Under the pieces are notes generated by a model, which was not told where the DNA came from, did not search any database, and was given only the letters and a program-made list of their open reading frames with translations. A DNA stretch of 64,000 nt from an uncultured Oscillospiraceae bacterium. Its GTDB lineage: Bacteria > Bacillota > Clostridia > Christensenellales > CAG-138. Shown here piece by piece: positions 3,375 to 31,829 of the stretch (position 1 is the first letter of the stretch; every line of letters starts with the position of its first letter). The position numbers and the translations under genes were made by a program. The stretch covers positions 1,730 to 65,729 of the forward strand of contig CAYPKG010000009.1 in the NCBI GenBank assembly GCA_964411275.1. The letters are read 5' to 3'.

Positions 3375-3380
3375 TCATCC

Positions 3381-3409
3381 ATCATACACCATTTACCGGC
3401 ATGATGCAA
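3381..3409 (-). promoter_or_regulatory. sigma-A-type promoter for SRP RNA
   Basis: Minus strand TTGCAT-17 nt-TATGAT directly upstream of the SRP RNA region. Confidence 0.5.
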
Positions 3410-3428
3410 GAATTATTGCATTACCTCA

Positions 3429-3458
3429 CCATCGACAAAGCCAAGGCTTTGTTGATGG
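3429..3458. repeat. 30-nt palindromic element, copy 1 (terminator-like hairpin 4 nt after the prsA-like stop codon)
   Basis: CCATCGACAAAGCCAAGGCTTTGTTGATGG; 27/30 identical to the reverse complement of 60995-61024. Confidence 0.6.
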
Positions 3459-3462
3459 TATT

Positions 3463-4842
3463 TTATCCCACCGGTTTGCCCACGTCGCGGATCACGTCCG
3501 TATAGCGGGTGACGATGCTGCTGTCGTTGCACCAGGCATCCAATGTGGCTTCCCATTCCTCAGTCTGCTTGTTGGCAAGAGCCAGTGCGTGCATTTCGTC
3601 CTTAACCTGGTCGAAAGTCCGTTCGCCGGCGGTTTCATTGCCCACGTACTGGAGGATGTGGTACCCTTCATCGTTCTTGATGATGGAAGTAAAGCTGCCC
3701 ACAGTGGTCAGCGCCATCGCCGCGTTCTTCAGATCCTCAGACCAGTCGGGGGATGTGGCGTTCTCGCTCATGAGCTTGCCCTTTTGCTGGAACACCTCAA
3801 AGTTTATGAAATCGCTGTCCTTGGTGTATTCCATCATCACGGCATCAAAGCTCTCCCCCGCCTCCAGCCGCGCGTAGGCGGCCTCTGCGTCGGTCTTGGC
3901 CGTGGCGAAATGCTCCTCGTACATCTTTTCCTTCTGCGCCTTCATTTCGGCGTACTCGCCCTTGATTTCAGCAATACGGGCGGCGTTGGCAGTCTCGTCG
4001 GTCAGGTTCAGCTGGCCAAGCTCCGCCTCGAGCTCGCTCATCTTCGTGGAAATATCCGTATACTCGGTTCCCAATTCCGCCTCAGGCACGAACTTGATAT
4101 ACTTCACCCGGCGGTACCCTTGCGGGGTATACAGCATCGGCTGCCCCTCATAGCGCTCGAAATTCTCCTGCTCGGTTTTATAAATGCCGGGGTCAGTTTC
4201 GATGGCGGTTTTCTGTTCCGTCAGCGTCGCGTCATAAAACGCTTTGACCTCGTCGTCACCGATGGTAACCTGCTGATTAAACGTCTCGCGCACCTTTTCG
4301 CGCAGGACGCTTTCGGTAAATTGCTTAGACAGCACGTCCTTGAGCGCGGCCTCGTCCATTGCCTCGCCAAAGTAGCTCATTGTGATCTCGTCAAACAATT
4401 CTTTCGTGCGCACGGCGGTGTCCAGCGAGGCGTCCTCGGCAAGCTCCAGCTCCACCTCTTCGCTGATCATATCGTTGATATATGTTATCTCTTCCGCAAC
4501 GGAAGCATCTACCTCGGCCTGCTCCTCGGTTGTCAGGGTGTTGAGGCCCTGGACATTCGCCTGATATTCCAATACCTTGGTGCTGATGAGACTCTCCAGC
4601 AGATAGTCCTGGAAGGATTGAAGCTCCTCGGGCGTGGCGGTAACATCCATCCCGTACATCTGATACATGGAAGCGAGGCTTTCAAAACTCTCCACGTATT
4701 CCTGCTTGGTGATTTCTACATCGTCAACCTTGGCGACGATTTGGGCCATGTCCTTTTCCTCGTTGACGCTGACCAGGCTGCATCCTACGGCGCTAAGGCA
4801 CAGAATGAGCCCCAGCATCAGGGCAACCAACCGTTTCTTCAT
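3463..4842 (-). CDS. PrsA/SurA-like foldase lipoprotein (parvulin-type peptidyl-prolyl isomerase)
   Basis: Lipoprotein signal MKKRLVALMLGLILCLSAVGCS and a C-terminal parvulin-like segment (GSFTSIIKNDEGYHILQY). AAGGAG RBS 8 nt before the ATG at 4842. Confidence 0.8.
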   Translation of the reverse strand: MKKRLVALMLGLILCLSAVGCSLVSVNEEKDMAQIVAKVDDVEITKQEYVESFESLASMYQMYGMDVTATPEELQSFQDYLLESLISTKVLEYQANVQGLNTLTTEEQAEVDASVAEEITYINDMISEEVELELAEDASLDTAVRTKELFDEITMSYFGEAMDEAALKDVLSKQFTESVLREKVRETFNQQVTIGDDEVKAFYDATLTEQKTAIETDPGIYKTEQENFERYEGQPMLYTPQGYRRVKYIKFVPEAELGTEYTDISTKMSELEAELGQLNLTDETANAARIAEIKGEYAEMKAQKEKMYEEHFATAKTDAEAAYARLEAGESFDAVMMEYTKDSDFINFEVFQQKGKLMSENATSPDWSEDLKNAAMALTTVGSFTSIIKNDEGYHILQYVGNETAGERTFDQVKDEMHALALANKQTEEWEATLDAWCNDSSIVTRYTDVIRDVGKPVG

Positions 4843-4910
4843 TGTGCAATCTCCTTTTCTTTTCTTCCCCAAATATCGATCGGGGCTCCCGCCCCGGTCC
4901 CCTCTGTTTT

Positions 4911-6182
4911 TTACTTGATCTTATCCCCGTACAATGTCACAATCCCCTGATCCTTCGCCTTTTGCCCATATTCCGAGCGGAGCTGGAAGGCCTGGGTAAT
5001 CCCGGCGGACTGGGCCAGGTTTGAACGGATCTGATCATCAACCTCGGAAAACTCACGCACGCCGGCCTCCAATTTCTCATCAAGGTACACCACGCACACG
5101 CCGTCCACAATATTCACGATCTCGGAGATATCCCCCGGATTTTGCAGCTGCAGCGCGGCGTCCCGGAACGTTTCCTCCACCTGTGTGCTTTCCTTGCAGA
5201 CATAATAGGGGATGATGTTAATGTCCTCGCTTTTTTCATTCATCAGCTTCATGAAATCCGCGCCCTCCTGAAGCGGGGCCATGATATCCGCCTGAAACGT
5301 CTTATGCAGCGACTCCAGGGCGCTGTTGAGCAAGCTTTCATATGCCAATGTCGCCCGGTCCAGCTCTTTTTGCTTGGATTTGGCGCCGGAGCCATTCTCG
5401 CCGCTTTCCTGTACAGCCGCAAAATACTGGGATGCCGCCAAGGACAGGCTTGTGGCCGCCGTCTGCAGCTCCTGCATTTGCTGGGAATTGAATTTCTTCG
5501 CAAGCCGCAGCACTTTCACATATCCTTCCGGAACATACACGATGACCGGCGGCAGGTTTTCACCCAGCCAACCGATGTTTTCTGCGCAACCCGCCTGTTG
5601 TTCCGCAAGCAGCTTGTCGTACTGCGCCCGGACTTCCTCATCAGAAATAACGATCTCCGCCTCCATTTGCTGCATCAAAAGCGCGGAAACATAGTTGTCC
5701 GTAATCGTGGCGCGCACCCGTTCCTCGTTGAGGGAGTTTTCCTTCATCAGCTCCTCAAAAGCCTGTTCGGCCTTGCGCATTCCCTTCTCGTCAGAGCCGA
5801 AACGCTCGATATACACAGCGATTGTCTGCTGATAATATTCATTGTACTGCTGATCGATTTCCATTTTCTGTTCGTCGGTCAGATCGTAAAGCCCGCGGCT
5901 GCGCGCCTCCTCTTTGAGGGCGGTGCGGCCCACGAGATCGTCGATTACCTGCTGCTTGAGCTCCGCGTATTCTGCGGCATACTGCTGCTTGGTAACATCC
6001 GCACCATAATACTGTTCGTACAGCGCAACCTGTTTGGCGAGATTTTGTTCATACTCCCAATGGTAGATCGGCGTTTCCCCCACCAATCCCACTACTTCAT
6101 TGGGGTCTTTCGCGCAGCCCGCCAGTGTGGTAAGCGCAATCAACAGCGCCATCACCAGCGTGAGCTTTTGTATCGCCTTCAT
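4911..6182 (-). CDS. PrsA/SurA-like foldase lipoprotein, paralogue 2
   Basis: Lipobox LTTLAGCAKD, coiled/acidic SurA-N-like middle region, parvulin-like C-terminus (GDISEIVNIVDGVCVVYL). AAGGAG RBS. Confidence 0.75.
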   Translation of the reverse strand: MKAIQKLTLVMALLIALTTLAGCAKDPNEVVGLVGETPIYHWEYEQNLAKQVALYEQYYGADVTKQQYAAEYAELKQQVIDDLVGRTALKEEARSRGLYDLTDEQKMEIDQQYNEYYQQTIAVYIERFGSDEKGMRKAEQAFEELMKENSLNEERVRATITDNYVSALLMQQMEAEIVISDEEVRAQYDKLLAEQQAGCAENIGWLGENLPPVIVYVPEGYVKVLRLAKKFNSQQMQELQTAATSLSLAASQYFAAVQESGENGSGAKSKQKELDRATLAYESLLNSALESLHKTFQADIMAPLQEGADFMKLMNEKSEDINIIPYYVCKESTQVEETFRDAALQLQNPGDISEIVNIVDGVCVVYLDEKLEAGVREFSEVDDQIRSNLAQSAGITQAFQLRSEYGQKAKDQGIVTLYGDKIK

Positions 6183-8817: not shown

Positions 8818-9423
8818 ATGTACCTGATCGTGGGGCTGGGCAATCCCGGCATCGCATACAGAAACTCCCGCCACAACGCGGGCTTTTTGGCGTTGGACGC
8901 CCTGGCCGCCCGGCTGAACGTGTCAATCGACCGGCGCGCGCACAAGGGCAAGCTGGCGGAGCTTTTCTTTGAGGGGGAGAAACTTCTCTTGTGTAAGCCC
9001 CAGACGTATATGAACTTAAGCGGCGAATGCGTGCAGGAAATCATGTCCTATTATAAATTGCCCATGGAAAACCTCATCGTGCTGTATGACGATGTGGATC
9101 TTCCGGTGGGGGAATTGCGCATCCGCGGCGGCGGCACCGGCGGCACCCACAACGGCATGCGCTCCATCATCGCGTGCATGGGCGGCGAAACGGGGTTCCC
9201 CAGGGTGCGCATTGGCGTGGGTAAACAGGAGGTGGGCCGGGATCTGGCGGCACATGTGCTGGGCAAGCCCCCCGTGGAAGAGCGGGAACTCTTAAAAACC
9301 GCCTTTGAAAATGCGGCGGACGCGGCGCAACTCATCATAAAAGGACAACTATCCGAGGCGCAGGCGAAATATAATATAAAAAAGAGAGACAAAGACATTC
9401 CCTCCGAGGAGGAGCAAGGGTGA
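8818..9423 (+). CDS. pth: Peptidyl-tRNA hydrolase
   Basis: MYLIVGLGNPGIAYRNSRHNAGF N-terminus; conserved pth-mfd synteny. Confidence 0.95.
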   Translation: MYLIVGLGNPGIAYRNSRHNAGFLALDALAARLNVSIDRRAHKGKLAELFFEGEKLLLCKPQTYMNLSGECVQEIMSYYKLPMENLIVLYDDVDLPVGELRIRGGGTGGTHNGMRSIIACMGGETGFPRVRIGVGKQEVGRDLAAHVLGKPPVEERELLKTAFENAADAAQLIIKGQLSEAQAKYNIKKRDKDIPSEEEQG

Positions 9424-12400
9424 TCAGCTTATTAGACGCGCTTCGCGATGCGCCGGAGTTTAACCGGCTGCACGAATTGATGGCGGCGGGCCTGGGCCCT
9501 GCGGCGGCATTTGGCCTGCCGGAAGCCCATGCCTCTTTCGTATTCGCCAAATTAAGCGAAAAAATAACCGCATTGTATGTGGCCGCGTCGGAGCAGGCGG
9601 CGGAGCGGGCATACCAACAGGCTGAGGCGCTGTTGGGAGACCGCGCGCTGTTTTTGCCGCTGAGGGAAATTCGGCTGACCCATGCCTACGCCGCGGCAGG
9701 CGGCCGGACAAAGGCCCGCATGACAACCCTCTCCCGGCTGATACTGGAAAAAAACACGCCCCACGCCATCATTGCGTCCGTAGAGACGTTGATGCAGCGG
9801 CTGGCCCCGCCAGAGGTGCTGGGCCGCACGGTGCGGCGGCTGTCTGTGGGCGATGAGCATCCTCCCAGGTTGCTGTTGAGCGGGCTTATGGACGCGGGCT
9901 ATGAAATCGTGGAGCTGGTGGAGGGCCCGGGGCAGGCAGCCCTCAGAGGGGATATTCTCGACCTGTACGCGCCCCATGCCCCAAGGCCATGCCGGATCGA
10001 GTTCTTTGGCGACGAAATCGACCGGATTTCCTATTATGACCCCGCCACCCAGCGCTCTGAAGAGCAGCTTTTAGAAGCGCTTATTACCCCCGCCACCGAA
10101 GCGCCCCAGGACGCGGCGGCCATCGCCAGGGCGCTTTCGTCCATCGGCGGCAGCGCGGACCCGGCAGCCGCCCGGGGCTTTGACGCCCAGCGCATCGCCT
10201 GGGAGGCGGGAAAGGCTTCCCCAGGCGCGGAAGCGCTGTTGCCGGTGCTGTATCCCAACGCGCCCGCGACGCTGTTGTCCTATCTCCCGTCCGACGCCAT
10301 CCTGCTCCTGCAGGAGCCGCCCAGGCTGGAGGACGCGGCCCAGGCCGCCTACCGCTTGTTTGAGCAGGAGGTGACCGCCATGCTGAACCGGGGAGAGGGC
10401 TGTTCTGCCCAGATGGAGCTGCTTCTCCCGCCGGACGCGCTGTTTCGCGCCCTTGATACCCCGCACACCGGGCTGTTGTACACACTCAAGCGCAGCTTTG
10501 GTCGCATCCGCGCCAAGGACAGCGTGGATTTTGACGCGGCCCGCCCCGCCCCGGTGTATCCGCTGGAAGCCGGGCGGGAGGAGCTAGCCAGGGACATCGG
10601 CGCCTGGAAAAAAACCGGAAGCGCCGTCGTGCTGTTCGCAGGCGCCCATGGGGAGCGGCTCAGGCAGGAATTGCTGGATCTCAAATGCGAAACGGCGTTT
10701 GCGCCAAAGCTCATGCGCCCGCCGCAAAAAGGCGAGGCGATCATCATAGGCGAAAGCCTTGTACAGGGGATGTGCTGGCCCAGCCTCCGGCTGGTCATAT
10801 TAAGCGAGGCGGAACTGACCCCGGGTTTGACGGGGGCGCGGGCGCTGAAAAAAACCGCCCGGGGCGCAAGGCCGCAGCTGGTGTTCGCGGACCTGAAGCC
10901 TGGGGATCTTGTGGTGCACGAGGCCCACGGCATCGGCAGGTTTTTAGGGGTTGAGGCGTTGACGGTGCAGGATACTACCCGGGATTATTTGCTGCTGCAG
11001 TATGCGGGGGGCGACAGGCTGTATATCCCCACGGATCAGCTGGACCGGGTGCAGAAATACATCGGCGGCGCTGGAGAGGAGCCGGTGAGCGTTCACCTTT
11101 CCAAATTGGGGGGCAGCGAATGGCAGCGGAAGGTCAGCCGGGCGCGGGGCGCGGTGAAGGCGCTGGCGTTCGATCTCGCGCAGCTGTACGCAAAGCGCGG
11201 ACAGGAGCCGGGCTTTGGGTTCTCTCCCGATTCCCCCTGGCAGCGCCAGCTGGAGGAGCGGTTTCCCTTTGACGAAACGCCGGACCAGCTCAATAGCATC
11301 AACGAAATCAAGGCGGATATGGAACGCCCCCGGCCCATGGACCGGCTGTTGTGCGGAGACGTGGGCTATGGCAAAACGGAGGTAGCGCTGCGGGCGGCGT
11401 TCAAGGCGGCGCAGGACAGCAAGCAGGTTGCGTTCCTGGTGCCCACCACAATCCTCGCCCAGCAGCATTACAATACGCTGTGCGCTAGGTTTGAGGAGTT
11501 TCCGGTGCGCGTCGGGCTTTTGTCCCGGTTTAAAACCCCCCAGGAACAAAAAAAACTGAAGGAAGCCATCAAGGCCGGCCAGGTGGACGTGGTGGTGGGC
11601 ACCCACGCGCTGCTGTCCAAGGACGTAAAATTTAAGGATCTGGGGCTTTTGATCGTAGACGAGGAGCAGCGCTTTGGCGTGGGGCATAAGGAGCAGATCA
11701 AGACCCTGCGCGCCAACATCGACGTGCTGACTTTATCCGCAACGCCCATCCCCCGGACGCTGCACATGTCCATGGTAGGCATCCGGGATATGAGCATCAT
11801 CAGCACCCCGCCGGAGGAACGCTACCCTGTGCAGACCTATGTCCTGGAGTATTCCGACATACTCACGGCGGATGTCATCAATAAGGAGCTGGGCCGGGGC
11901 GGCCAATGCTATGTGGTATACAACAGGGTCGCGCAGATGGAAGGGTTTGCCAAGCGGTTGAGCGGCTTGCTTCCCGCGTCCGCCCGGGTGGGATATGCCA
12001 ACGGGCAGATGCCTGAACGGCAGCTGGAGCAGACGATGCTGGATTTTCTGGAGCATCGTATCGATGTGCTGGTATGCTCCACCATCATTGAAAACGGGCT
12101 GGACATCCCCAATGTGAACACACTCATCGTGATGGACGCGGACAAGATGGGCCTAAGCCAGCTTTACCAGCTGCGGGGGCGGGTTGGCCGGTCCACCCGG
12201 CTGGGGTACGCGTATTTTACGTTTAAGAAGGATAAGGTTTTGACGGAAATCGCCCACAAGCGGCTTCTGACGCTTTCGGAATTCACGCAGTTCGGCGCGG
12301 GCTTCCAGATCGCGCTACGGGATTTGGAAATCCGGGGGGCTGGCAGCCTTTTGGGGGCGCAGCAGCATGGGCATATGGCGGACGTAGGCTATGAATACTA

Positions 12401-12917
12401 TTGCAAGCTCATGGACGAGGCGCTCCGGGAGGCCAAGGGGGAAACCCCGGCGCTGGAGGTGGACACGGTGGTGGATATCCCAGTGGATGCCCATATCCCC
12501 AAGACTTATATCCCAAGCGAGATATTGCGGCTGCAAATGTACAAGCGGATCGCCCTGATCGACGGGCAGGAAGCGCTGCTGGACGTTCAGGATGAGCTCA
12601 CCGACCGGTATGGGGACATCCCCGCGCCAACGCAAACTCTCATGGATGTAGCGCTGGTTAAGGCCCTGTGTGCACAGGCGCATATCAGCTCGCTGACCGT
12701 AGGCAATCGCAGCGCGAAACTGCTGTTCCATCCCGAGGCGCAGATCGACGGGGAGCGGCTGTTCGCCGCCGTGAGCCGGTTTGGGTTAAAGGTGGCCCCT
12801 GGGCCGGAGCAGGTATCTTTGACCTATACCCTGGCGAAGGCGGACGCGGCGATGATACTGTCCCAATTGCCCGGGCTGCTGATGGAGATCGGGGCCTGCG
12901 TACTGCAAGAAGAATAG
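9420..12917 (+). CDS. mfd: Transcription-repair coupling factor
   Basis: 1165 aa; Walker A DVGYGKTEVALRAAF and DEEQ box LLIVDEEQRFG. The GTG start overlaps the pth stop (GTGA). Confidence 0.95.
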   Translation: MISLLDALRDAPEFNRLHELMAAGLGPAAAFGLPEAHASFVFAKLSEKITALYVAASEQAAERAYQQAEALLGDRALFLPLREIRLTHAYAAAGGRTKARMTTLSRLILEKNTPHAIIASVETLMQRLAPPEVLGRTVRRLSVGDEHPPRLLLSGLMDAGYEIVELVEGPGQAALRGDILDLYAPHAPRPCRIEFFGDEIDRISYYDPATQRSEEQLLEALITPATEAPQDAAAIARALSSIGGSADPAAARGFDAQRIAWEAGKASPGAEALLPVLYPNAPATLLSYLPSDAILLLQEPPRLEDAAQAAYRLFEQEVTAMLNRGEGCSAQMELLLPPDALFRALDTPHTGLLYTLKRSFGRIRAKDSVDFDAARPAPVYPLEAGREELARDIGAWKKTGSAVVLFAGAHGERLRQELLDLKCETAFAPKLMRPPQKGEAIIIGESLVQGMCWPSLRLVILSEAELTPGLTGARALKKTARGARPQLVFADLKPGDLVVHEAHGIGRFLGVEALTVQDTTRDYLLLQYAGGDRLYIPTDQLDRVQKYIGGAGEEPVSVHLSKLGGSEWQRKVSRARGAVKALAFDLAQLYAKRGQEPGFGFSPDSPWQRQLEERFPFDETPDQLNSINEIKADMERPRPMDRLLCGDVGYGKTEVALRAAFKAAQDSKQVAFLVPTTILAQQHYNTLCARFEEFPVRVGLLSRFKTPQEQKKLKEAIKAGQVDVVVGTHALLSKDVKFKDLGLLIVDEEQRFGVGHKEQIKTLRANIDVLTLSATPIPRTLHMSMVGIRDMSIISTPPEERYPVQTYVLEYSDILTADVINKELGRGGQCYVVYNRVAQMEGFAKRLSGLLPASARVGYANGQMPERQLEQTMLDFLEHRIDVLVCSTIIENGLDIPNVNTLIVMDADKMGLSQLYQLRGRVGRSTRLGYAYFTFKKDKVLTEIAHKRLLTLSEFTQFGAGFQIALRDLEIRGAGSLLGAQQHGHMADVGYEYYCKLMDEALREAKGETPALEVDTVVDIPVDAHIPKTYIPSEILRLQMYKRIALIDGQEALLDVQDELTDRYGDIPAPTQTLMDVALVKALCAQAHISSLTVGNRSAKLLFHPEAQIDGERLFAAVSRFGLKVAPGPEQVSLTYTLAKADAAMILSQLPGLLMEIGACVLQEE

Positions 12918-12926
12918 GAGGGCATC

Positions 12927-13211
12927 ATGGAGCGGGGACAAACACTGATATCCGGGTTTTTTCAGCATACGGCCTGCCCCTTTTTCCCTTGCCATAATGT
13001 TGAAAACCCGGCTCAATTCAACTGTCTGTTCTGCTATTGCCCGCTGTACGCCCTGGGGCCGGACTGCGGAGGCGACCTAACATACACCGAAGGCGGCGCC
13101 AAGGACTGCTCCAACTGCCTTTTGCCCCACCGGCGGGACAGCCTAAAGTATATTGAGAAAAGGCTGCCGCTGATCATGAAGCTGGCGGGCAAACCGCCAA
13201 CAAAAGAATAG
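12927..13211 (+). CDS. Cysteine-rich small domain protein (putative metal-binding)
   Basis: 94 aa with about 10 Cys in CPFFPCH...CLFCYCPLY...DCSNC spacing, typical of the cysteine-rich small domain family. Confidence 0.65.
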   Translation: MERGQTLISGFFQHTACPFFPCHNVENPAQFNCLFCYCPLYALGPDCGGDLTYTEGGAKDCSNCLLPHRRDSLKYIEKRLPLIMKLAGKPPTKE

Positions 13212-16057: not shown

Positions 16058-16621
16058 ATGACCAGAGATCAGGCATTGGTTTTATTGCAAAAGTACAACG
16101 ACAGCGAACACCTCATCAAGCACGCGCTGACCGTGGAAGCGGTTCTGCGCGAGTTTGCCCGTATGGGCGGCGAGGACGAGGAATATTGGGGCAATGTCGG
16201 CCTGCTCCACGACATCGACTACGAACGGTGGCCGGACGAGCATTGCAAGAAGGCAGCCGGCATTCTCAGGGAAGAGGGCGTGCCCGAGGACATCATTCAC
16301 GCCGTGGTCAGCCATGGCTACGGCATTTGTTCCGACGTAAAGCCGGAACGGTATATGGAAAAGGTGCTGTACGCAATCGACGAGCTTTCCGGGCTGATCA
16401 CCGCAAGCGTTCTGATGCGCCCGTCCCGTTCGGTGCTGGATCTAGAGGTCAAAAGCGTCAAGAAAAAGTTTAAGGATAAGGGCTTTGCGGCCAAAATCGA
16501 CAGGGAGATTATACTAAGAGGCTGTGAAATGATGGACATGCCCCTTGATGAGGTCATCGCCCACAGCATCGCGGGCATGCGTGCTGCCGCCGACGAGCTT
16601 GACCTGAAAGGCACCCTGTAA
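16058..16621 (+). CDS. HD/HDIG-domain metal-dependent phosphohydrolase
   Basis: 187 aa; H...HD motif (HALTVEAV...LLHDIDYE). Confidence 0.8.
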   Translation: MTRDQALVLLQKYNDSEHLIKHALTVEAVLREFARMGGEDEEYWGNVGLLHDIDYERWPDEHCKKAAGILREEGVPEDIIHAVVSHGYGICSDVKPERYMEKVLYAIDELSGLITASVLMRPSRSVLDLEVKSVKKKFKDKGFAAKIDREIILRGCEMMDMPLDEVIAHSIAGMRAAADELDLKGTL

Positions 16622-16768: not shown

Positions 16769-16775
16769 TTCGACA
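16769..16775 (-). promoter_or_regulatory. Consensus 0A box (TGTCGAA) upstream of the spo0A promoter
   Basis: TTCGACA on + is TGTCGAA on -, 27 nt upstream of the predicted -35. Confidence 0.4.
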
Positions 16776-16801: not shown

Positions 16802-16830
16802 TTGATAGTTAGATCATGTTACACTATAGT
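16802..16830 (+). promoter_or_regulatory. sigma-A-type promoter for spo0A
   Basis: TTGATA-17 nt-TATAGT, about 100 nt upstream of the spo0A ATG. Confidence 0.45.
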
Positions 16831-16930
16831 CACGAAAATAATAATTCATATAATTCAACAAATATCACACTTTACATACTTTGCATGGCACGCATTAAAA
16901 AAAGAATATGTTGGAGGGGAAGAAAGTATT

Positions 16931-17716
16931 ATGTCAAAACTCAGGGTATTGGTCGTCGATGACAATGTGCAGTACTTGTCAAATGTCCGCAGCTACTTTA
17001 GCGCGCAAGACCGGGTAACACAGGTGGATGTGGCCACCAACGGCCGCGAAGCGTTGGACAAGCTTCGTTCCAACCGCTATGACGCGATGCTGCTGGGGAT
17101 CATCCTTCCCCAGATGGATGGCTTTGGCGTGTTGGAGCATTTGAATGCGGCAGGCGGGGAAATGCCGGCAGTCATCATGGTTTCAGCGCTTCGCAACGAG
17201 CGGATGGTACGGCAGGCCTGCGCGCTGGGCGCACGGTATTTCATGGTGAAGCCTGTTGAACCGGACATGCTGTACCGCAGGATGATTGAAATGCTGGCTG
17301 TACCGGAGGAGGGCGGCAATCGCGTGGCGGCCACCATGGCACAACCGCCCCGGTCGCTGGATGAAAAGATCACTTCCGTATTTTTAGTGGCTGGCATTCC
17401 TGCGCACATCAAAGGCTATCATTATCTAAGAGAGGGCATCCGCATGGTATATTTTAAGCCCAATCTCATCAACCGGATTACAAAGGAATTGTACCCCGGC
17501 GTCGCGGAAAAATTCAACACCTCTGCCAGCAAGGTGGAGCGGGCAATCCGCCATGCCATCGAGGTTGCATGGAGCAGAGGGCGAATAGAAAATATCAATC
17601 AGCTGTTTGGATTTAACATCTACTCGAAAAACGACAAGCCCACCAACGGCGAATTCATTGCCCTGGTGGCGGACAAGCTGCTGATGGAGCGCCCGCCGGA
17701 AAAAGAAGTGAGCTAG
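16931..17716 (+). CDS. spo0A: Sporulation master regulator Spo0A orthologue (receiver domain with Gly at the phospho-acceptor position)
   Basis: C-terminal domain is nearly identical in its motifs to B. subtilis Spo0A ([54 protein letters not shown]). GGAGGGGA RBS before the ATG at 16931. The receiver has D10, D11, S85 and K107 but G56. Confidence 0.92.
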
Positions 17717-18680: not shown

Positions 18681-18686
18681 AACATG

Positions 18687-18947
18687 CAAAAGCGTTGATT
18701 GGGACGAGTAGGGTCAAGAAAACCTTTGAAGCGAGCCGCGGCGGGTGCAAGCGCGGCAGGGAAGCGCGGCCTGAATATCACCCATGAGCGGCTGGGGAAA
18801 CCGGCGAAATCCGGAAGTAATCCAGCACGTGATCCGCACGTTATAGCGGGGCCATGAACATCATGGCGCATAAGAGAGGGCGCATTCGCGCCAACTCGGG
18901 TGGTACCGCGCGGCAATCCGCGTCCCGAACGGGGCGGGGATTTTTTT
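18687..18947 (+). promoter_or_regulatory. T-box riboswitch, Ile specifier (AUC)
   Basis: AGTA and GGGTGCAA Stem I motifs. Specifier context GAAU-AUC-A (AUC at 18777-18779). T-box AACTCGGGTGGTACCGCG (18893-18910, UGGU bulge for an A73 tRNA). Terminator ATCCGCGTCCC/GGGGCGGGGAT followed by T7 (18916-18947). Confidence 0.9.
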
Positions 18948-18985: not shown

Positions 18986-21900
18986 ATGTACAAAAAGGTA
19001 TCCACTTCCCTGGACTTTGTTTCCCGGGAAAAAGAGGTTCTGAAGTTCTGGAAGGAAAGCCGGATCTTTGAAAAAAGCTGCGAGCATCGCAAGGGCGCGG
19101 AGCCCTATACGTTTTTTGACGGGCCGCCAACCGCCAACGGCAAGCCCCACATCGGCCATATCCTAACCCGCTGCATCAAGGACATCATCCCCCGCTACAA
19201 GACCATGAAAGGGTATGACGTGATGCGCAAGGCAGGGTGGGATACCCATGGCCTGCCGGTTGAGCTGGAGGTTGAAAAGCAGTTGGGTCTTGACGGCAAG
19301 GAGCAGATCGAGGCCTATGGCGTGGAACCATTCATCGCCGCCTGCAAAAAATCCGTGTGGAAGTACAAGGCCGAGTGGGAGCAGATGAGCGACCGCGTCG
19401 GCTTCTGGGCGGACATGGAAGACCCGTATATCACCTATGAAAACAACTATATTGAGTCCGAATGGTGGGCGCTCAAAACCATTCATGAAAAGGGCCTGCT
19501 GTACAAGGGCCACAAGGTAGTACCCTACTGCCCCCGCTGCGGGACGGCGCTGTCCTCCCACGAGGTGGCCCAGGGGTATAAGGAATTAAAAGAGGCGTCC
19601 GCTACGGTGCGCTTTCGCTGCACTGACGAGGACGCGTCGTATCTGGCGTGGACCACCACGCCCTGGACGCTGTTGTCCAACGTGGCCCTCTGCGTCCGGG
19701 GGGACGTATGCTATTGCCGGGCGAAAAAGGACGGCGAGGTGTTCATTCTCGCAAAGGAGCTCGTAGGCGACGTGCTGGGAGAGGACGCTGAAATACTCGA
19801 TACATTCGACGGCACGTCACTGGTGGGCCGCAGGTATGAACCACTCTATGACTGCACCGTGAAGGCGGCGGGCAAGCAAAACGCATTCGTTGTCGTCGCC
19901 GACGATTATGTCACCACCACCGACGGCACCGGCATCGTCCACAACGCCGCGGCCTTCGGCGAGGACGACGCCCGGGTGTGCCGGGACAACGGCCTTGCCT
20001 TCGTGCAGCTGGTGGACACAAAGGGCAATCTTTGCGGCGGCACCCACTGGGACGGCCTGTTCGTCAAACAGGCGGATCCGCTGATCATCGCCGACCTCAA
20101 GGAGCAGGGCCTGCTGTTGGACGCGCCGATATTCGAGCACAGCTATCCCCATTGCTGGCGCTGCGACACGCCGCTGATCTATTACGCCCGGGAATCCTGG
20201 TTTATTAAGATGACGGCTGTGAAGGACAATATCCTGGATTTCAACCGCCGTGTGAATTGGATTCCAGAAAATATCAAGGAAGGCCGCATGGGCAATTTCC
20301 TTGAGAACATCATCGACTGGGGCCTGTCCCGGGAGCGCTATTGGGGCACGCCGCTGCCGGTTTGGGTCTGCCAGGACTGCGATGAGGTACATGTGATCGG
20401 TTCCATCAAGGAATTGCAGGAGCTGGGGGAGAACGTCCCGGACGATATCGAGCTGCACAAGCCATTCATCGACCGGGTGGTGGTTCACTGCCCCAAGTGC
20501 AAGGGTACAATGAAGCGGGAGCCCGCGGTCATCGACTGCTGGTTCGACTCGGGCGCCATGCCCTTTGCCCAGTGGCACTATCCATTTGAACACAAAGAGG
20601 AGTTTGAAAAGCGGTATCCCGCCAACTTCATTTCAGAGGCCATCGACCAGACCCGCGGCTGGTTCTATACCCTGCTGGCGATTTCCACCTGCCTGTTCGA
20701 CGATCCGGCGTTCTTAAACTGCATCGTAATGGGCCATGTCCAGGACAAGGACGGCCGCAAGATGAGCAAGCACCTGGGCAACGTGATAGACCCCTGGACG
20801 GTGCTGGACAAACAGGGGGCGGATGCGGTGCGCTGGTATTTCTACACTGGCTCCATGCCCTGGCTGCCCTCGCGCTTCTATGAGGATGCCGTAAACGAAA
20901 GCCAGCGGAAATTTATGGGCACCCTGTGGAACACCTACGCCTTCTATATTCTGTACGCGCAGATCGACGGGTTTGACCCCACGAAGCACAGTCTGATCCG
21001 GGAGAACCTCACGGAAATGGACCGCTGGATTTTATCCCGGTTGAACACCCTGGTGGGCTTTGTGGATGCAAAGCTGGGGGCGCTACACATCACGGAAGCC
21101 GGCCGCGAGCTGCAGCGGTTCGTGGACGATCTGTCCAACTGGTATGTACGCCGCTGCCGGGAGCGGTACTGGGGCAAGGAAATGACCGCCGACAAGGAAG
21201 CGGCGTATATGACCCTATATAGGGTGCTGGAAACCCTAAACAGGCTGAGCGCGCCGTTCATCCCCTTCATGACCGAGGAAATCCACCAGAACCTCGTCAG
21301 AAGCGTGGACGCGGGGGCGCACGAAAGCGTGCATCTGACGGATTTCCCCGCGGCAGACCCGAGCTTTATCGATGCTGAACTGGAAGTGCACATGCAGCGG
21401 GTGCTGAACATCGTGGTGCTGGGCCGCTCCGCCCGCAATGTGGCCAATATCAAAAACCGCCAGCCCATCGGCACCATGTTCGTACAGAGCCAGGCGCTGC
21501 CGGAGGGGTATGTGGCAATCATCGCGGAGGAATTGAACGTCAAGGACGTCCGGTTCGTTGACGACGCCTCTTCCTTCATTTCCTACAAGGCAAAGCCCCA
21601 GCTGAAGACCCTGGGGCCCCGCTACGGCAAGATGCTGCCCAAGATCAACGTCTACCTGCAGAGCGAGGGCGTTGGCAGCCTGGTGGTGGCGGCCCACAAC
21701 GAGGGGCGGAATTTTGAGTTTGAGCTCGAAGGCGTCACCATCTCCCTGGACAAAGACGACGTGCTGATCGAGCCTGTGCAAAAGGCCGGGTTCGTTACCG
21801 TAACCGAGCGGGAACTGTCCGTTGTGCTGGACACCAACCTGACCCCCGATCTCATCGAGGAAGGGTTTGTCCGGGAGCTGACCAGCAAGGTACAGACCAT

Positions 21901-22108
21901 GCGCAAGGAGGCGGGGTTTGAAGTGACGGACCATATCCGGCTCAGCTACGCCGGAAGCCAGAAGATTGAGGACATATTTGTCCGCTTCGGTTCCGCCATC
22001 GCCAAGGACACACTGGCTGAGTCCGTCAGCAACGGCGAGGCAGCCGGGTTTGTCAAGGAATGGGATGTGAACGGCGAAACCGTTGCGCTGGGCGTGGAAA
22101 AGGTATAA
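18986..22108 (+). CDS. ileS: Isoleucine--tRNA ligase
   Basis: 1040 aa; HIGH (PHIGHILT) and KMSKS (KMSKHLGN) motifs. Confidence 0.97.
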   Translation: MYKKVSTSLDFVSREKEVLKFWKESRIFEKSCEHRKGAEPYTFFDGPPTANGKPHIGHILTRCIKDIIPRYKTMKGYDVMRKAGWDTHGLPVELEVEKQLGLDGKEQIEAYGVEPFIAACKKSVWKYKAEWEQMSDRVGFWADMEDPYITYENNYIESEWWALKTIHEKGLLYKGHKVVPYCPRCGTALSSHEVAQGYKELKEASATVRFRCTDEDASYLAWTTTPWTLLSNVALCVRGDVCYCRAKKDGEVFILAKELVGDVLGEDAEILDTFDGTSLVGRRYEPLYDCTVKAAGKQNAFVVVADDYVTTTDGTGIVHNAAAFGEDDARVCRDNGLAFVQLVDTKGNLCGGTHWDGLFVKQADPLIIADLKEQGLLLDAPIFEHSYPHCWRCDTPLIYYARESWFIKMTAVKDNILDFNRRVNWIPENIKEGRMGNFLENIIDWGLSRERYWGTPLPVWVCQDCDEVHVIGSIKELQELGENVPDDIELHKPFIDRVVVHCPKCKGTMKREPAVIDCWFDSGAMPFAQWHYPFEHKEEFEKRYPANFISEAIDQTRGWFYTLLAISTCLFDDPAFLNCIVMGHVQDKDGRKMSKHLGNVIDPWTVLDKQGADAVRWYFYTGSMPWLPSRFYEDAVNESQRKFMGTLWNTYAFYILYAQIDGFDPTKHSLIRENLTEMDRWILSRLNTLVGFVDAKLGALHITEAGRELQRFVDDLSNWYVRRCRERYWGKEMTADKEAAYMTLYRVLETLNRLSAPFIPFMTEEIHQNLVRSVDAGAHESVHLTDFPAADPSFIDAELEVHMQRVLNIVVLGRSARNVANIKNRQPIGTMFVQSQALPEGYVAIIAEELNVKDVRFVDDASSFISYKAKPQLKTLGPRYGKMLPKINVYLQSEGVGSLVVAAHNEGRNFEFELEGVTISLDKDDVLIEPVQKAGFVTVTERELSVVLDTNLTPDLIEEGFVRELTSKVQTMRKEAGFEVTDHIRLSYAGSQKIEDIFVRFGSAIAKDTLAESVSNGEAAGFVKEWDVNGETVALGVEKV

Positions 22109-25445: not shown

Positions 25446-26078
25446 TTACTTCTTTTCCGCAAGCATTTCTTTGGTTTTCATGAGCCGGCTCAGGTTCCCG
25501 CGCTCGTTCTCATCCAGTTTCATTTTGATCTGCCGGATGGCTTCGGTAAACTGCGGGATCATGACGTACTCCAGGGCGTTCACCCTGCGGCGGGTCTTTT
25601 CGATCTCGTCCGCCAGCCTGTTACAGGTCTTTTCCACCTCCGCCAGCTCCAACAACAACGGCAGCAGCTCCGAGAGCGCCTGCACCGCGCCGTCCAGCTC
25701 CGCGCTGGTGGTGGCAAAGCCGTATGGATACGTGAAATTGCCGTCGCTTTGCGCAAGGGTCAGTTTCGGCACGGCGATGGAAAGCACGTTCATCATGCTG
25801 ACGGTGACGTTGGCCGGCCGCGCCGGATACAGTAAAGCTTCCTCTACCGCCTCGTTGCCCATGGACGCCCGGGCCAGCACAAAGCCCTTCATGGCTTCGG
25901 ATAATTTTTGTTCCACTTCCTCGCGCAGCACCTTGTTGCGCCGCACGAATATGATGAACCGGCGGACCATTTCGTCCCGCTTATCCTTCATCATTTTATG
26001 GCCGCGCACGGCGGTGACCCTCCGCTTTTTCAGGTTGGAGAGCTCCATGCGCGTGGGTTTATACTGCAAAGCCGCCAT
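25446..26078 (-). CDS. ntpD: V/A-type ATP synthase subunit D
   Basis: 210 aa, coiled-coil central-stalk pattern (PTRMELSNLKKR...), last gene of the operon. Confidence 0.9.
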   Translation of the reverse strand: MAALQYKPTRMELSNLKKRRVTAVRGHKMMKDKRDEMVRRFIIFVRRNKVLREEVEQKLSEAMKGFVLARASMGNEAVEEALLYPARPANVTVSMMNVLSIAVPKLTLAQSDGNFTYPYGFATTSAELDGAVQALSELLPLLLELAEVEKTCNRLADEIEKTRRRVNALEYVMIPQFTEAIRQIKMKLDENERGNLSRLMKTKEMLAEKK

Positions 26079-26081
26079 TCG

Positions 26082-27461
26082 TTATCCCTCCTCTTGGGGG
26101 AGATATTTATCAAGGTATGCGTCGCGGATACGCTTCAATTCCGTCCTGGGCAGGATCGACAACAGCTTCCAGCCGATTTCAAGGGTCTCCTCGATGGAGC
26201 GGTTCGTGTAATACCCCTGGGATACATACTCCGCCTCAAACGCGTCGGAGAACTCGGCGTACAGCTTGTCGGTGTCGGACAAAGCCGCGTCACCCAGAAT
26301 GACCGCCAGCTCTTTCGCGTCCTTTCCACGGGAATACGCCGCGAAAAGCTGGTTCATGGTGTCGGCGTGATCCTCCCGGGTCTTGCCCTTGCCGATACCC
26401 TTGTCCTTGAGACGGGACAGGGAGGGAAGCACGTTGATCGGCGGGGTGAGGCCCCTGCGGTAAAGGTCACGGGACAGTATGATCTGGCCCTCGGTGATGT
26501 ACCCGGTCAGGTCGGGGATCGGGTGGGTCACGTCGTCCTCGGGCATGGACAGGATGGGGATCATCGTGATGGAACCCGCGTTTTCCTTGATACGGCCCGC
26601 GCGCTCATACATGGTCGCAAGGTCGGTATACAAATAGCCCGGGTAACCACGGCGGCCCGGCACTTCCTTGCGCGCGGCGGACACCTCGCGCAGCGCCTCG
26701 GCGTAGTTGGTGATGTCCGTCATGATGACCAGCACGTGCATCCCCAGGTCATACGCCAAATACTCGGCGGCGGTGATGGCCATACGGGGGGTGGCGATAC
26801 GCTCGATTGCCGGGTCGTTCGCCAGGTTGATGAACGTCACCGTCCTGTCGATGGCGCCGGTTTTCTGGAAATCCGTGGTAAAGAAGTCCGCTTCCTCAAA
26901 CGTGATGCCCACCGCGGCGAACACCACGGCGAAGCTCTCGTCGGTGCCAAGCACCCGGGCCTGACGGGCGATCTGCGCAGCCAGGTTGGCGTGGGGCAGA
27001 CCGGAGCCGGAGAACACCGGCAGCTTCTGTCCGCGCACCAGGGTGTTGAGCCCGTCGATAGCGGAAATACCGGTCTGGATAAACTCCGACGGGTAGTCAC
27101 GGGCGGCGGGGTTCATGGGCGCGCCGTTGATGTCCAGGCGTTTTTCCGGGATGAGGGCGGGCCCGCCGTCCTTGGGGCGGCCCATGCCATCGAACACGCG
27201 GCCCAGCATATCCGGGGCCACGTCCAGCTCGATGGAGCGGCCCAGGAACCGCGCCTTGGAGTTGCTGATCCTAAGACCCTGGGAGCCTTCAAACAGCTGC
27301 AGCAGCGCCTTGTCGTCCTCGACCTCCAGCACACGGCCACGGCGCATTTCGCCGTTTGCCTGCTCGATCTCCACCAATTCGTCATATTTGACGCCTGCGA
27401 CGTCTTCCACCATCATCAGCGGACCTACGACCTCGCGGATTGTCCGGTATTCCTTACGCAT
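26082..27461 (-). CDS. ntpB: V/A-type ATP synthase subunit B
   Basis: Typical B-subunit sequence ([17 protein letters not shown]...). ATG at 27461 sits 8 nt after GGAGG. Confidence 0.95.
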
Positions 27462-29226
27462 CCTCGGCACCTCCCTCCATCAGCCCGCGAATTTGCTCAT
27501 TCAGCGCAGCCGATACCTGCTCGTATTTCGCAGGCATTTCATCCTCTGGCACGTACTTGATACGGCCGATCTCTTCGCGCACGGGCAGGCTGGAAAGCTT
27601 TGCGAAGGAGGCGTCCGCGTTCAGCGCCGCAAGACCCTTTTCGTAGTAATCGAGTATCAGTTTGAGCATCATGTACTGCTTCGCCGTGGAGGTATAGGTA
27701 TCCACCTCGTGGAACGCATTTTGATGCAGATAGTCCTCGCGGACGGAGCGGGAGGCTTCCAGCGTCAGGCGATCCTTGAAGGACAGCGCGTCGATACCCA
27801 CCAGGCGCACGATTTCCTCCAGCTCGCTCTCCTCCTGGAGCATGTTCATTGTCTTTTGCACCATCTGCGACCATTCCGCCGCCACATTCTCGTTGAACCA
27901 GCCTTCCAGCCGGTCGAGATACAGGGAATAGCTCTGCAGCCAGTCGATGGCTGGGAAGTGCCTGGCATACGCCAGCTTGGAGGACAAGCCCCAATACACC
28001 TTCACGATACGCAGCGTGGCCTGGGAAACCGGCTCTGAAATATCGCCGCCCGGAGGGGAAACCGCGCCGATGGCGGAAACCGCGCCCTCCCGGCCTTCGC
28101 TGCCCAGCGTCTGCACGACGCCGGCGCGCTCGTAGAACTCCGCCAGACGGGAGGACAGGTATGCGGGGTAGCCTTCCTCGCCCGGCATTTCCTCGAGACG
28201 GCCGGACATTTCACGAAGGGCCTCCGCCCAACGGGAGGTGGAGTCGGCCATGATGGCCACCTTGTAGCCCATGTCCCTAAAGTATTCCGCGATTGTGATG
28301 CCTGTGTAGATGGAGGCTTCCCGGGCCGCCACGGGCATGTCGGAGGTGTTGGCGATGAGCACCGTCCGCTTCATCAGCGACAGGCCGGTGCGGGGGTCCT
28401 TCAATTCCGGGAACTCCATGAGCACGTCGGTCATCTCGTTGCCGCGCTCGCCGCAGCCAACATACACGATGATGTCCGCGTCCGCCCATTTCGCCAGCTG
28501 GTGCTGCACGACGGTTTTGCCGGAGCCGAAGGGGCCGGGCACCGCCGCCACGCCGCCCTTTGCCACGGGGAACAGGGTGTCGATAACCCGCTGTCCCGTG
28601 ATCATCGGCTCTGTGGGGGCGATTTTTTTCGCATAGGGGCGGCCGCGGCGCACAGGCCATTTCTGCAGCATGCACACCTCGACTGTTTCGCCCTTATCGT
28701 TCATCAGTTTCGCGATAGGCTCCACGATGTTGGCGTCCCCGGATTTGATCCAGGTCAGCTTGCCGCTGACTCCCGGAGGAACCATCACCTTGTGAAGCAC
28801 CGCTTCCGTCTCCTGGACGGTGCCAAGAATGTCGCCTGGCTGCACCTCGTCGCCTTCATTGGCAACTGGTACAAAATCCCAAAGCTTGTCGTGATCCAGC
28901 GCGTCCACCTCGATGCCGCGGGTAATTCGGTCCCCCGCCTTTTCCCTAATCATGTTAAGGGGCCGCTGGATGCCGTCGTAAATCGCCTCAATGAGGCCCG
29001 GCGCCAATTCTACGCTGAGGGGCGCGCCGGTGCTATAAACGGGCTCGCCGGGGCCAATGCCGCCGGTCTCTTCGTAAACCTGGATGCTGGCGCGGTCGCC
29101 GCGCAGCTCAATCACCTCACCGATCAGGTGCTTTTCGCTGACGCGTACCACGTCGTACATCTGTACGTCGGCCATGCCGGACGCTACGATAAGAGGCCCA
29201 GAAACCTTGACGATCGTACCTTGCAT
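27454..29226 (-). CDS. ntpA: V/A-type ATP synthase catalytic subunit A
   Basis: 590 aa; Walker [10 protein letters not shown]. Confidence 0.95.
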
Positions 29227-29244
29227 ACGCTCTTCTACCTTCCT

Positions 29245-29559
29245 TTACGAGAATAAGATGTCCGCGCCGATGGCCTTTTCCACATTGGACTTCATTTCCG
29301 CCATGCCGACGCCCTGTGTCCCCTGATTGCTTGGGATGGGGATGATGGCGGGAAACGCCTCGGACTTATACTTTGAAATCGCTTCGCCGCATTCCTTATA
29401 CAGCTCCTCTGTGACGAAGATCACCTGATACCCTCCCCGGGCCAGCTTGTGTATCGTCCGGGAGGCTTTCGCGCCCTCGGTTTCAAAAAACACATTGAGC
29501 CCGACCGCCTTGAAGAGCAGTACGGAGTCGCGGTCGCCTATTACACCGATATTAGCCAT
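29245..29559 (-). CDS. V/A-type ATP synthase subunit F
   Basis: About 104 aa; MANIGVIGDRDSVLLFKAVGL is typical of the F subunit. Confidence 0.8.
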   Translation of the reverse strand: MANIGVIGDRDSVLLFKAVGLNVFFETEGAKASRTIHKLARGGYQVIFVTEELYKECGEAISKYKSEAFPAIIPIPSNQGTQGVGMAEMKSNVEKAIGADILFS

Positions 29560-30541
29560 ACAACTCACGCAACCTCTCCGTAATGACGCCCTCATCCAGG
29601 CCGTTGCGCTTTACGGTCACGATGAGGCGGATACACCGAGCCTCCTGTTCCCTGGCCAGCAGATATCCCAGCACCGGCTGCAGCGTCATCACATCGTATT
29701 TGCCCTTTTTCGTCAGTTCCATCAGGTGATTGTCCCGTGCCTTTTCAAGGGCGCTGACCCGGTCGGTGCGGAGCATCTCCTCCAGCCCCTTTTGTATCGC
29801 GGAGCCGGCGACGCCGGTGCTCACCTGTTTGACCATGTTCTCCTGGGGCTGCTCCATGGCATCCACCAGTGTGCTTTTCGGGATGCTTCCACCCGGCAGC
29901 ACCACGTCCGCAAGCTCTTCTTTTGAGGCGCCCATGGCCCGCAGCCGAAGCAGCGCCAGGACATTGTCAAAATCCGCAAGCGCCTTAAAATAGTCGCTGG
30001 CAAACGCGTTTTTGTGTTTATTCAGTATCATGCCCGCGTGGGTGTGATACGCCTGATCCAGGCGCACGCTAACCCGCTGGGGATCCTCCCTTGTGGGCAG
30101 TTCTTTCTCCAATGCCTCCAGCGCGTCGCGTAACGCGCCGGGCAAATCGCGATAGTCGTGATCGCGCACCGCAAGCGTGAGCTTTTCCTTTAGATATACG
30201 CCGCCGGAAACAAGCTCCACGTCCTGGCTGTCCAACAGCCGCGCCTTCAACAATACCTTGAGGTTGTGGATGTCCGTCTTCAATAAAAACAGATCCGTGA
30301 TCTCAGGCTCCGGCGTGATCTCCTGAACCAGCCGGGCCGCGTCATCCCGCTCGTGTGCGATCATGGCTTCGCAGTCGGCTGCGGTGGCCTCGGGCATGTT
30401 TCCATACCCGGACTCGACGAGCATCCGCACGGCTTCCTCCAGGCTGCTTTCAGCCAAGCGCGACATTTTGTCGCGGCCAATCAGTCCGTTTTCCTTCGCG
30501 CGGATGCGCGCCACCGCATATGCATAGCTTGACTGTGGCAT
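29552..30541 (-). CDS. ntpC: V/A-type ATP synthase subunit C (V0 d-like)
   Basis: About 329 aa; N-terminus YAYAVARIRAKE is typical; operon position between E and F. Confidence 0.8.
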   Translation of the reverse strand: MPQSSYAYAVARIRAKENGLIGRDKMSRLAESSLEEAVRMLVESGYGNMPEATAADCEAMIAHERDDAARLVQEITPEPEITDLFLLKTDIHNLKVLLKARLLDSQDVELVSGGVYLKEKLTLAVRDHDYRDLPGALRDALEALEKELPTREDPQRVSVRLDQAYHTHAGMILNKHKNAFASDYFKALADFDNVLALLRLRAMGASKEELADVVLPGGSIPKSTLVDAMEQPQENMVKQVSTGVAGSAIQKGLEEMLRTDRVSALEKARDNHLMELTKKGKYDVMTLQPVLGYLLAREQEARCIRLIVTVKRNGLDEGVITERLRELYG

Positions 30542-30594
30542 GCGCTTTTCCTCCATTCTCCCGCTCACGGCAATTGCCGCGCCGGGACCTTAGA

Positions 30595-31200
30595 TCAGTC
30601 GAACAGGATGCCCGCCACCGCGGTTTCCTCCACGGCCCTCGCGTCCCGGATGAGAGCCGAAAAGGAACAGTCCTTCTCATAGCCATCACCCTTGAGCACA
30701 AAGCCGTATTCCATGTCATTCTCCGCGGCCCCCGCCGTAAGCGGGCGTTTTCCCGCAGCTTCAAGGGCCTCGTTCACCTCAGGCAGCAGCTCCATGAGCG
30801 CTTCATGATCCGCGCTGCCGCCGCAAACGGTTTCCCCGCCGTCGGCCTCCGCAAGAAGCATCTTGCGGCATACCTGCGCGCGCTCCGGGCCGGAAAGCCC
30901 GCAAAGATCCTTGTAGGCGGTCGCAAATGCCTCGTCCACAATCTCCCGGCGCGACGCCAGGGCCTGTTTGCGAGCCTCCAGCTCCGCGTTGGTGCGGCTG
31001 CGCTCCAGGATGCTTTTTTGTGCCGCTGCAGTTGCCTTTGTCAGCTCGTCCCTGCGCTTGTCAATCCGCTTTTCGCAGTCCAGGCGGATTTCATCTAAGC
31101 GGGCATTCGTCTCAAGCTCCAGCTTGGCAGCGTCCTTCTTCGCATCCTCCAATATCCGTTCCACCAGCTTGCTTGCGCCGGTGTTCAGTTCATTCGCCAT
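30595..31200 (-). CDS. ntpE: V/A-type ATP synthase subunit E
   Basis: About 201 aa, N-terminal charged coiled coil (ILEDAKKDAAKLELE...), operon position. Confidence 0.75.
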   Translation of the reverse strand: MANELNTGASKLVERILEDAKKDAAKLELETNARLDEIRLDCEKRIDKRRDELTKATAAAQKSILERSRTNAELEARKQALASRREIVDEAFATAYKDLCGLSGPERAQVCRKMLLAEADGGETVCGGSADHEALMELLPEVNEALEAAGKRPLTAGAAENDMEYGFVLKGDGYEKDCSFSALIRDARAVEETAVAGILFD

Positions 31201-31280
31201 ACGCATTCTCTCTTTCTCCCATAAGGGCACCGGAATTCTCTAGGAGAATTCAAGGGTCTTTTTTCCGTTTGAGAGTCTGT

Positions 31281-31829
<549 letters not shown>

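Follow-up and report, generated by a model that had tools for sequence, protein, structure and literature searches.

Textbooks present Spo0A as a master switch gated by phosphorylation, and the locus described here raises the question of what becomes of such a switch when the residue that should accept the phosphoryl group is no longer an aspartate. The locus is a spo0A gene on contig CAYPKG010000009.1 of an uncultured Oscillospiraceae bacterium, analysed within a stretch of 64,000 nucleotides (hereafter the 64 kb window), in whose coordinates all positions are given. A preliminary description of this DNA had recognised the gene as spo0A, had placed a glycine at residue 56, the position of the acceptor aspartate, and had concluded that a real Spo0A that is not phosphorylatable at the canonical site would be controlled differently. 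The evidence collected here favours that conclusion. We consider it probable, with a good measure of doubt, that the window protein is a functional, aspartate-less orthologue of Spo0A, controlled by expression level, by a partner or by a ligand and not by His-Asp phosphotransfer.

The window gene encodes a Spo0A with glycine at residue 56

The product of the gene (Table 1) scored 272.5 bits with the NCBIfam equivalog model TIGR02875 ('spore_0_A'), for which the cut-off is 200, and contains the Pfam domains Response_reg and Spo0A_C, in agreement with the identity first proposed. Its start methionine is the same as that of its homologues. In sequence-structure alignments, the receiver matched solved Spo0A receivers, including 5WQ0, and the C-terminal domain matched solved Spo0A effector domains (E = 6e-42 for 1FC3; about 1e-41 for 1FC3 and 1LQ1), with the recognition-helix region intact. 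The AlphaFold2 model of the protein had a mean pLDDT of 89.5, with block means of 89-98 over residues 1-120, and contained a complete (beta/alpha)5 receiver of five strands and five helices. Judged from its sequence, the window gene is a genuine spo0A that passes the tests of family membership except for the acceptor aspartate.

Around the acceptor position, the in-frame reading is CTG (L54), CTG (L55), GGG (G56) and ATC (I57), and G56 pairs with the acceptor aspartate in the 5WQ0 stretch 'dvlllDiimphldg'. Strand beta3 of the AlphaFold2 model comprises residues 52-56, with G56 as the last. Among 194 distinct aligned Spo0A sequences, column 56 held Asp in 166, Glu in 22, Gly in 5 and Ala in 1, and outside the two clades described below the acceptor column of this alignment is invariantly Asp. 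The earlier mapping of the other receiver residues was upheld by the alignment: the acidic pair D10 and D11, the switch residue S85 and the pocket lysine K107 are all present. The possibility that another aspartate occupies the acceptor position was rejected, because profile hidden Markov model and structure-sequence alignments, together with the AlphaFold2 model, set G56 at the end of beta3; no other aspartate could be placed at the acceptor position in either the alignments or the model. Two further aspartates of the window protein, D51 and D63, also occur in canonical Spo0A proteins. The protein is by definition an aspartate-less receiver (ALR), that is, a recognisable receiver domain (REC) in which the phosphorylatable aspartate has been replaced.

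The substitution is shared by a clade and maintained by selection

Relatives were drawn from a collection of 5.8 billion proteins, and identities are given relative to the window protein. The preliminary description had proposed to check whether close relatives share the substitution, and the five nearest indeed carry Gly or Ala at residue 56: Gly in P0003 (77% identity, codon GGG), P0004 (77%, GGG), P0005 (75%, GGC) and P0010 (69%, GGC), and Ala in P0002 (78%, GCG). Asp-bearing relatives (66-72% identity) have GAT or GAC as codon 56. The six Gly/Ala sequences were monophyletic in a neighbour-joining tree of the 194 sequences, with a bootstrap value of 69% when column 56 was excluded, and were nested among Asp56 sequences of uncultured Clostridia, the exact sister being unsettled. 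All clade members come from metagenome-assembled genomes (MAGs), among them CAYJPI01, GCA_028699375.1 and GCA_964476505.1, or from metagenome contigs. Database labels on them and on their relatives read Oscillospiraceae, Eubacteriales or Christensenellales, and annotation pipelines name such proteins 'sporulation transcription factor Spo0A' without remark. A scan of JGI/ENA metagenome contigs yielded only Asp56 and Glu56 relatives and no further Gly/Ala members.

The argument made earlier, that two substitutions separate the glycine codon from an aspartate codon, holds for the present GGG but not for its history, since relatives with GGC stand one step from GAC/GAT. With GGC in relatives and GAT or GAC in the sister clades, one non-synonymous step therefore sufficed. 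Asp56 was probably replaced by Gly in the ancestor of the clade through a change of GAC to GGC, after which the codon would have drifted to GGG and, on one branch, changed to Ala (GCG). The clade differs from Asp56 relatives at few positions (D37N/S, T215S, K218R and a variable K193), and nothing convincing was found among these clade-specific positions as a compensating change that would explain constitutive activity. The substitution P60S, which we take to be a phosphorelay-bypass allele of B. subtilis spo0A, was observed in P0010 (loci L089 to L091, Gly56), the sole clade member to carry it, and in the Glu56 locus L027.

The receiver pocket is retained across most of the clade, with D11 in all six sequences and D10 in five; residue 104 is Phe or Tyr throughout (F104 in the window protein). 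When the receiver domain was scanned by alignment, no aspartate peculiar to the clade was found anywhere in it. In the Gly56 member P0003 (locus L085), the first acidic pocket residue is gone too (D10Y, codon TAT), which suggests that proteins of the Gly/Ala clade can do without an intact metal-binding pocket.

That the glycine is a sequencing or assembly error, or that the gene is a decaying pseudogene, has one point in its favour, namely the prior expectation that the acceptor aspartate is invariant. The exact window protein is, however, on record from five contigs. Four of these were examined, from four separate assemblies (runs SRR8925759, SRR8925721, SRR8925811 and SRR8925720); each contains the 786-nt gene without a single base change and, over 5.5-13.7 kb, shows 0-6 mismatches to the window. 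The five nearest relatives, all with Gly or Ala, use three different codons at the site, and the open reading frame (ORF) is full-length and intact, with omega (dN/dS) far below 1 and a receiver that is not excessively diverged. The artefact reading was rejected on the identical DNA in four assemblies and the Gly/Ala state in relatives; error and decay together retain a negligible probability. The earlier view that a single-base sequencing error is unlikely thus stands, given GGG in independent assemblies and Gly or Ala in relatives.

Within the clade, synonymous divergence (dS) was saturated, being above 1.1 or undefined. For the receiver, non-synonymous divergence (dN) was 0.09-0.40 and omega 0.06-0.18 wherever computable; omega of the C-domain was 0.03-0.11, and Spo0A_C is about 90% identical across the clade. 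Mean divergence was 0.33 in the receiver and 0.10 in the C-domain, a ratio of 3.16, and the corresponding ratio in four comparison clades with Asp56 was 2.6-4.5. The receiver is no more diverged than in Asp-bearing clades, and there is therefore no sign of relaxed constraint. Both domains are under purifying selection, with no sign that the receiver has been released. Relaxed selection or decay was rejected on the receiver omega and on a divergence ratio within the Asp56 range, and the decaying regulator that had been offered as an alternative is accordingly disfavoured. By these measures, the substitution is evolutionarily maintained and is not a recent lesion.

A second aspartate-less clade carries glutamate

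The 22 sequences with Glu at column 56 belong to an independent clade, 55-65% identical to the window protein, on a separate branch of the neighbour-joining tree. Its MAGs are labelled Christensenellales or Christensenellaceae (for example P0074, and L023 as 'Christensenellaceae bacterium Phil1'). In this clade, D11 is always replaced, by Gly, Ser, Pro, His or Asn, and L55 has become Thr in 21 of the 22 sequences and Ser in the remaining one; sequences neighbouring the clade have lost D11 and kept D56. The C-domain is equally conserved. A consensus 0A box was found upstream at none of the three loci checked (L092, L021 and L023). The clade is abundant, accounting for 34 of the 80 metagenome loci, many of them in human-gut assemblies, and P0074 by itself has entries in 1696 index blocks, with contigs reaching 2.6 Mb. 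Its loci include L021, L023, L026-L030, L037, L092, L093 and L111-L126, and its proteins P0074, P0083, P0089 and P0096. One of its MAGs, MWBW01 (Firmicutes bacterium ADurb.Bin248), holds the Glu56 gene L021 on a 70 kb contig and an Asp56 fragment, L019, on a 1.2 kb contig.

Upstream signals and genomic context

The region upstream of the window gene contains a candidate autoregulation site, with two promoter matches located between this 0A box and spo0A (Table 1). Exact matches to TGTCGAA number five across the 64 kb window, as many as chance alone would give. In the 400 nt preceding spo0A, an exact 0A box was present at 5 of 6 Gly/Ala loci and at all 4 Asp56 sister loci, the chance expectation being about 5% per 400-nt region, and the boxes lie at varying distances within otherwise unalignable spacers. 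This distribution suggests that autoregulation outlived the loss of Asp56, and a DNA-binding function of the window Spo0A is plausible.

Directly upstream of spo0A lies an HD-domain gene. A homologue of this gene (62% identity) is the immediate upstream neighbour of spo0A in L005 (Ala56) as well as in L006 and L070 (both Asp56), and an HD-domain gene also holds this slot in L094 (Asp56) and L095. Since this context is shared with Asp56 relatives, the window gene occupies the ancestral spo0A position, and it appears to be the positional orthologue of spo0A, not a divergent extra copy. In distant spore-formers, the place of the HD gene is held by spoIVB. The spoIVB-spo0A adjacency was found at 27 of 176 loci, distant ones only, and was absent from all relatives of at least 45% identity, whatever their residue 56; because it is missing from Asp56 relatives too, it is uninformative about the clade.

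No sporulation-specific gene besides spo0A was found in the 64 kb window. The genes present are mazG, tauE, two PrsA/SurA-like genes, a P-type ATPase gene, pth, mfd, a zf-like gene, bipA, a sortase gene, the HD-domain gene, a Zn-peptidase gene, ileS with its T-box leader, a malic enzyme gene, a V/A-type ATPase operon, upp, rpiB, sua5, prfA, prmC, an aro operon, gdh, uvrA and uvrB. Spore-formers usually have spoVT after pth-mfd, and yabP, yabQ and divIC after mazG. In the window, what comes after pth and mfd is not spoVT but a short Cys-rich 'zf-like' gene (PF04071; the three genes span 8818-13211), and none of yabP, yabQ and divIC follows mazG (373-1812). The missing genes are a weak hint at most on sporulation status. 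A plus-strand ORF at 3361-4950 (529 aa) is probably spurious, the real gene apparently being a minus-strand PrsA/SurA-like peptidyl-prolyl isomerase at 3463-4872.

Table 1. Coordinates of spo0A, its sequence features and selected neighbouring features in the 64 kb window.
Feature	Position	Strand	Details
spo0A coding sequence	16931-17716	+	261 aa plus stop; ATG at 16931, TAG at 17714-17716
Ribosome-binding site GGAGGGG	16913-16919	+	11 nt before ATG; direct reading
Receiver (REC), residues 6-116	16946-17278	+	Pfam PF00072 Response_reg, 76.7 bits, profile positions 1-108 of 111
Acidic metal-binding pair D10 (GAT) and D11 (GAC), retained	16958-16963	+	Direct reading
Codon 56, GGG (Gly), at the phospho-acceptor Asp position	17096-17098	+	Direct reading; alignment to 5WQ0; last residue of beta3
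S85, Thr/Ser switch residue, retained	17183-17185	+	6/6 in the Gly/Ala clade; aligns with Thr of solved Spo0A receivers
K107, pocket lysine, retained	17249-17251	+	Invariant in 70/70 aligned homologues and in the Gly/Ala clade
Spo0A_C (DNA-binding, transcription activation), residues 147-250	17369-17680	+	Pfam PF08769, 134.8 bits, profile positions 1-104 of 104
0A box TGTCGAA, candidate autoregulation site	16769-16775	-	Exact consensus, 162 nt upstream of the start codon
Two overlapping sigma-70-like promoters	16802-16854	+	TTGATA-17-TATAGT and TAGTCA-16-TATAAT; 10/12 each, consensus matches only
HD-domain gene	16058-16621	+	187 aa; Pfam HD; directly upstream of spo0A
T-box leader	18686-18930	+	Rfam RF00230, 116 bits; upstream of the isoleucyl-tRNA synthetase gene (18986-22108)
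Large Bacillus-type signal recognition particle RNA	3086-3353	-	RF01854, 197 bits
V/A-type ATPase operon, complete	25446-33767	-	Subunits I, K/c, E, C, F, A, B, D

Proposed control without the acceptor aspartate, and its alternatives

For a functional Spo0A of this kind, the mechanism we infer departs from the canonical one at the input. His-Asp phosphotransfer to the canonical site could not activate the protein. Output would probably follow the amount of Spo0A made, which would be adjusted by its own feedback, positive or negative, on the 0A box, and a protein partner or a small ligand acting on the conserved receiver may contribute; the receiver would still govern dimerisation and the release of the DNA-binding domain. 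One may speculate that the retained acidic pair, serine and lysine, beside a cavity of the size left by glycine, fit a site for such a ligand or partner.

It counts in favour of this proposal that the canonical mechanism depends on Asp56: in C. difficile the D56A substitution of Spo0A abolished the phosphorylated band and lowered sporulation more than 1000-fold, the residual activity being attributed to weak DNA binding by unphosphorylated Spo0A (bioRxiv 10.1101/2022.02.07.479450). Several points weigh against it. Substitutions of D56 inactivate Spo0A in model organisms. Few changes accompany the loss of Asp in the clade (D37N/S, T215S, K218R), and the sequence offers no explanation of how an aspartate-less receiver would become active. 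The support for monophyly of the clade is moderate and comes from a distance-based tree, saturation of dS leaves the omega values approximate, and the 0A boxes that have been kept would fit binding by another Spo0A copy equally well. The genomic basis is 64 kb, with spo0A as its one sporulation-specific gene, and the clade has no cultured member.

It is quite possible, if less probable than the proposal above, that the lineage no longer sporulates and that Spo0A has been kept for a non-sporulation regulon; kinase input would have become dispensable, and the loss of Asp56 first tolerated and then fixed. Such repurposing shares the phosphorylation-independent mechanism with our preferred reading and differs from it only in what the protein controls. 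It would fit a 64 kb window with no other sporulation-specific gene, the lack of spoVT after pth-mfd and of yabP, yabQ and divIC after mazG, their usual positions, and the absence of the spoIVB-spo0A adjacency from the whole group of at least 45% identity; non-spore-formers that retain spo0A do exist (Galperin et al.). Yet 64 kb of housekeeping genes says little about 60-100 dispersed sporulation genes, the spoIVB adjacency is lacking in Asp56 relatives too and is thus unlinked to the loss of Asp, and strong conservation of the whole receiver, pocket included, is not predicted if the input had merely become irrelevant. The opposite case, in which the clade still sporulates and triggers entry without phosphoryl transfer, strikes us as unlikely. 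Here D10, D11, S85 and K107, together with the Gly56 cavity, would form a non-covalent sensor of a small anion, a metabolite or a partner that mimics the acyl-phosphate and drives dimerisation. If this were true, then, alongside the abundant Glu56 clade of separate origin, it would imply that kinase-independent control of Spo0A has evolved repeatedly in gut Clostridia.

The window gene could also be an accessory paralogue beside a canonical Asp56 spo0A, acting as a non-phosphorylatable partner or competitor through heterodimers or occupancy of 0A boxes. Precedents are known, with two spo0A paralogues in ten Clostridiales genomes and three in Anaerostipes hadrus (Galperin et al.), and the MAG ADurb.Bin248 of the Glu56 clade contains both its Glu56 gene and the Asp56 fragment. 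The fragment is, however, likely a binning contaminant, since it lies on a 1.2 kb contig and its residues 50-65 are identical to those of L008 from another organism. The window gene, moreover, is preceded by an HD-domain gene just as the Asp56 genes of the sister clade are, which is what an orthologue should show. The best match to the window Spo0A among 185,579 species-representative genomes is 78% identical, and L005 (CAYJPI01), the sole clade genome among these representatives, contributed just one spo0A locus to the 80 that were retained, in a scan that was pattern-limited and on a MAG that may be incomplete. We regard an accessory role as unlikely, although it is the chief rival to orthology. 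Phosphorylation at another residue, either D10/D11 or a Ser, Thr, Tyr or His modified by a different class of kinase, is highly improbable. The retained D10, D11, S85 and K107 would allow the metal-binding pocket to persist, and the CheY variant D57N, in which the adjacent Ser56 can take the phosphoryl group, offers a precedent for an alternative site. In the window protein, however, the residue before G56 is Leu, the clade has no specific new Asp, Ser or Thr near the pocket, and D10 itself has been lost in one member (D10Y in P0003).

Comparison with known systems

Should the preferred reading hold, the presence of spo0A in a MAG is an unsafe proxy for a kinase-controlled sporulation pathway. 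With the Glu56 clade widespread in human-gut metagenomes, some common gut Clostridia may govern sporulation, or whichever process Spo0A now directs, by rules of another kind. The two clades would also be natural experiments on how a receiver gates its output domain without phosphorylation, and would bear on Gly-type ALRs, which have no characterised representative. A full-text literature search found no paper describing an aspartate-less Spo0A; the sole trace was the count of seven aspartate-less receivers, given without comment, among 391 Response_reg~Spo0A_C proteins (Maule et al. 2015, PMC4395418, S6 Table). The earlier statement that no acceptor-less Spo0A has been described is thus right as to descriptions, although such proteins had already been counted.

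Compared with canonical Spo0A (B. subtilis and C. difficile; 1QMP/1DZ3, 5WQ0, 1FC3 and 1LQ1), the window protein has the same two-domain architecture and has in common with it the acidic pair, the Thr/Ser switch, the pocket Lys and a consensus 0A box upstream of its own gene. It differs in having Gly in place of Asp56, without which C. difficile Spo0A is not phosphorylated and more than 99.9% of sporulation is lost, and spoIVB is missing upstream of its gene. Like the ALRs, of which FrzS (Ala), ChxR (Glu), HP1043 and RitR are examples (Maule et al. 2015, PMC4395418), it places a receiver fold without phosphorylatable Asp N-terminal to a DNA-binding output domain, and like most of them it retains the first acidic residue, the pocket Lys and the Y/T-coupling residues. 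D11, the second of the acidic pair, is kept as well, as in just 29% of ALRs, and Gly accounts for 11% of ALR substitutions, the only common class without a characterised representative (Maule et al. 2015, PMC4395418). Unlike the named ALRs, the output domain is Spo0A_C. A parallel in kind is offered by the Glu56 clade: both are orthologue-type Spo0A proteins without the acceptor aspartate, with independent origins and with Glu in one and Gly in the other.

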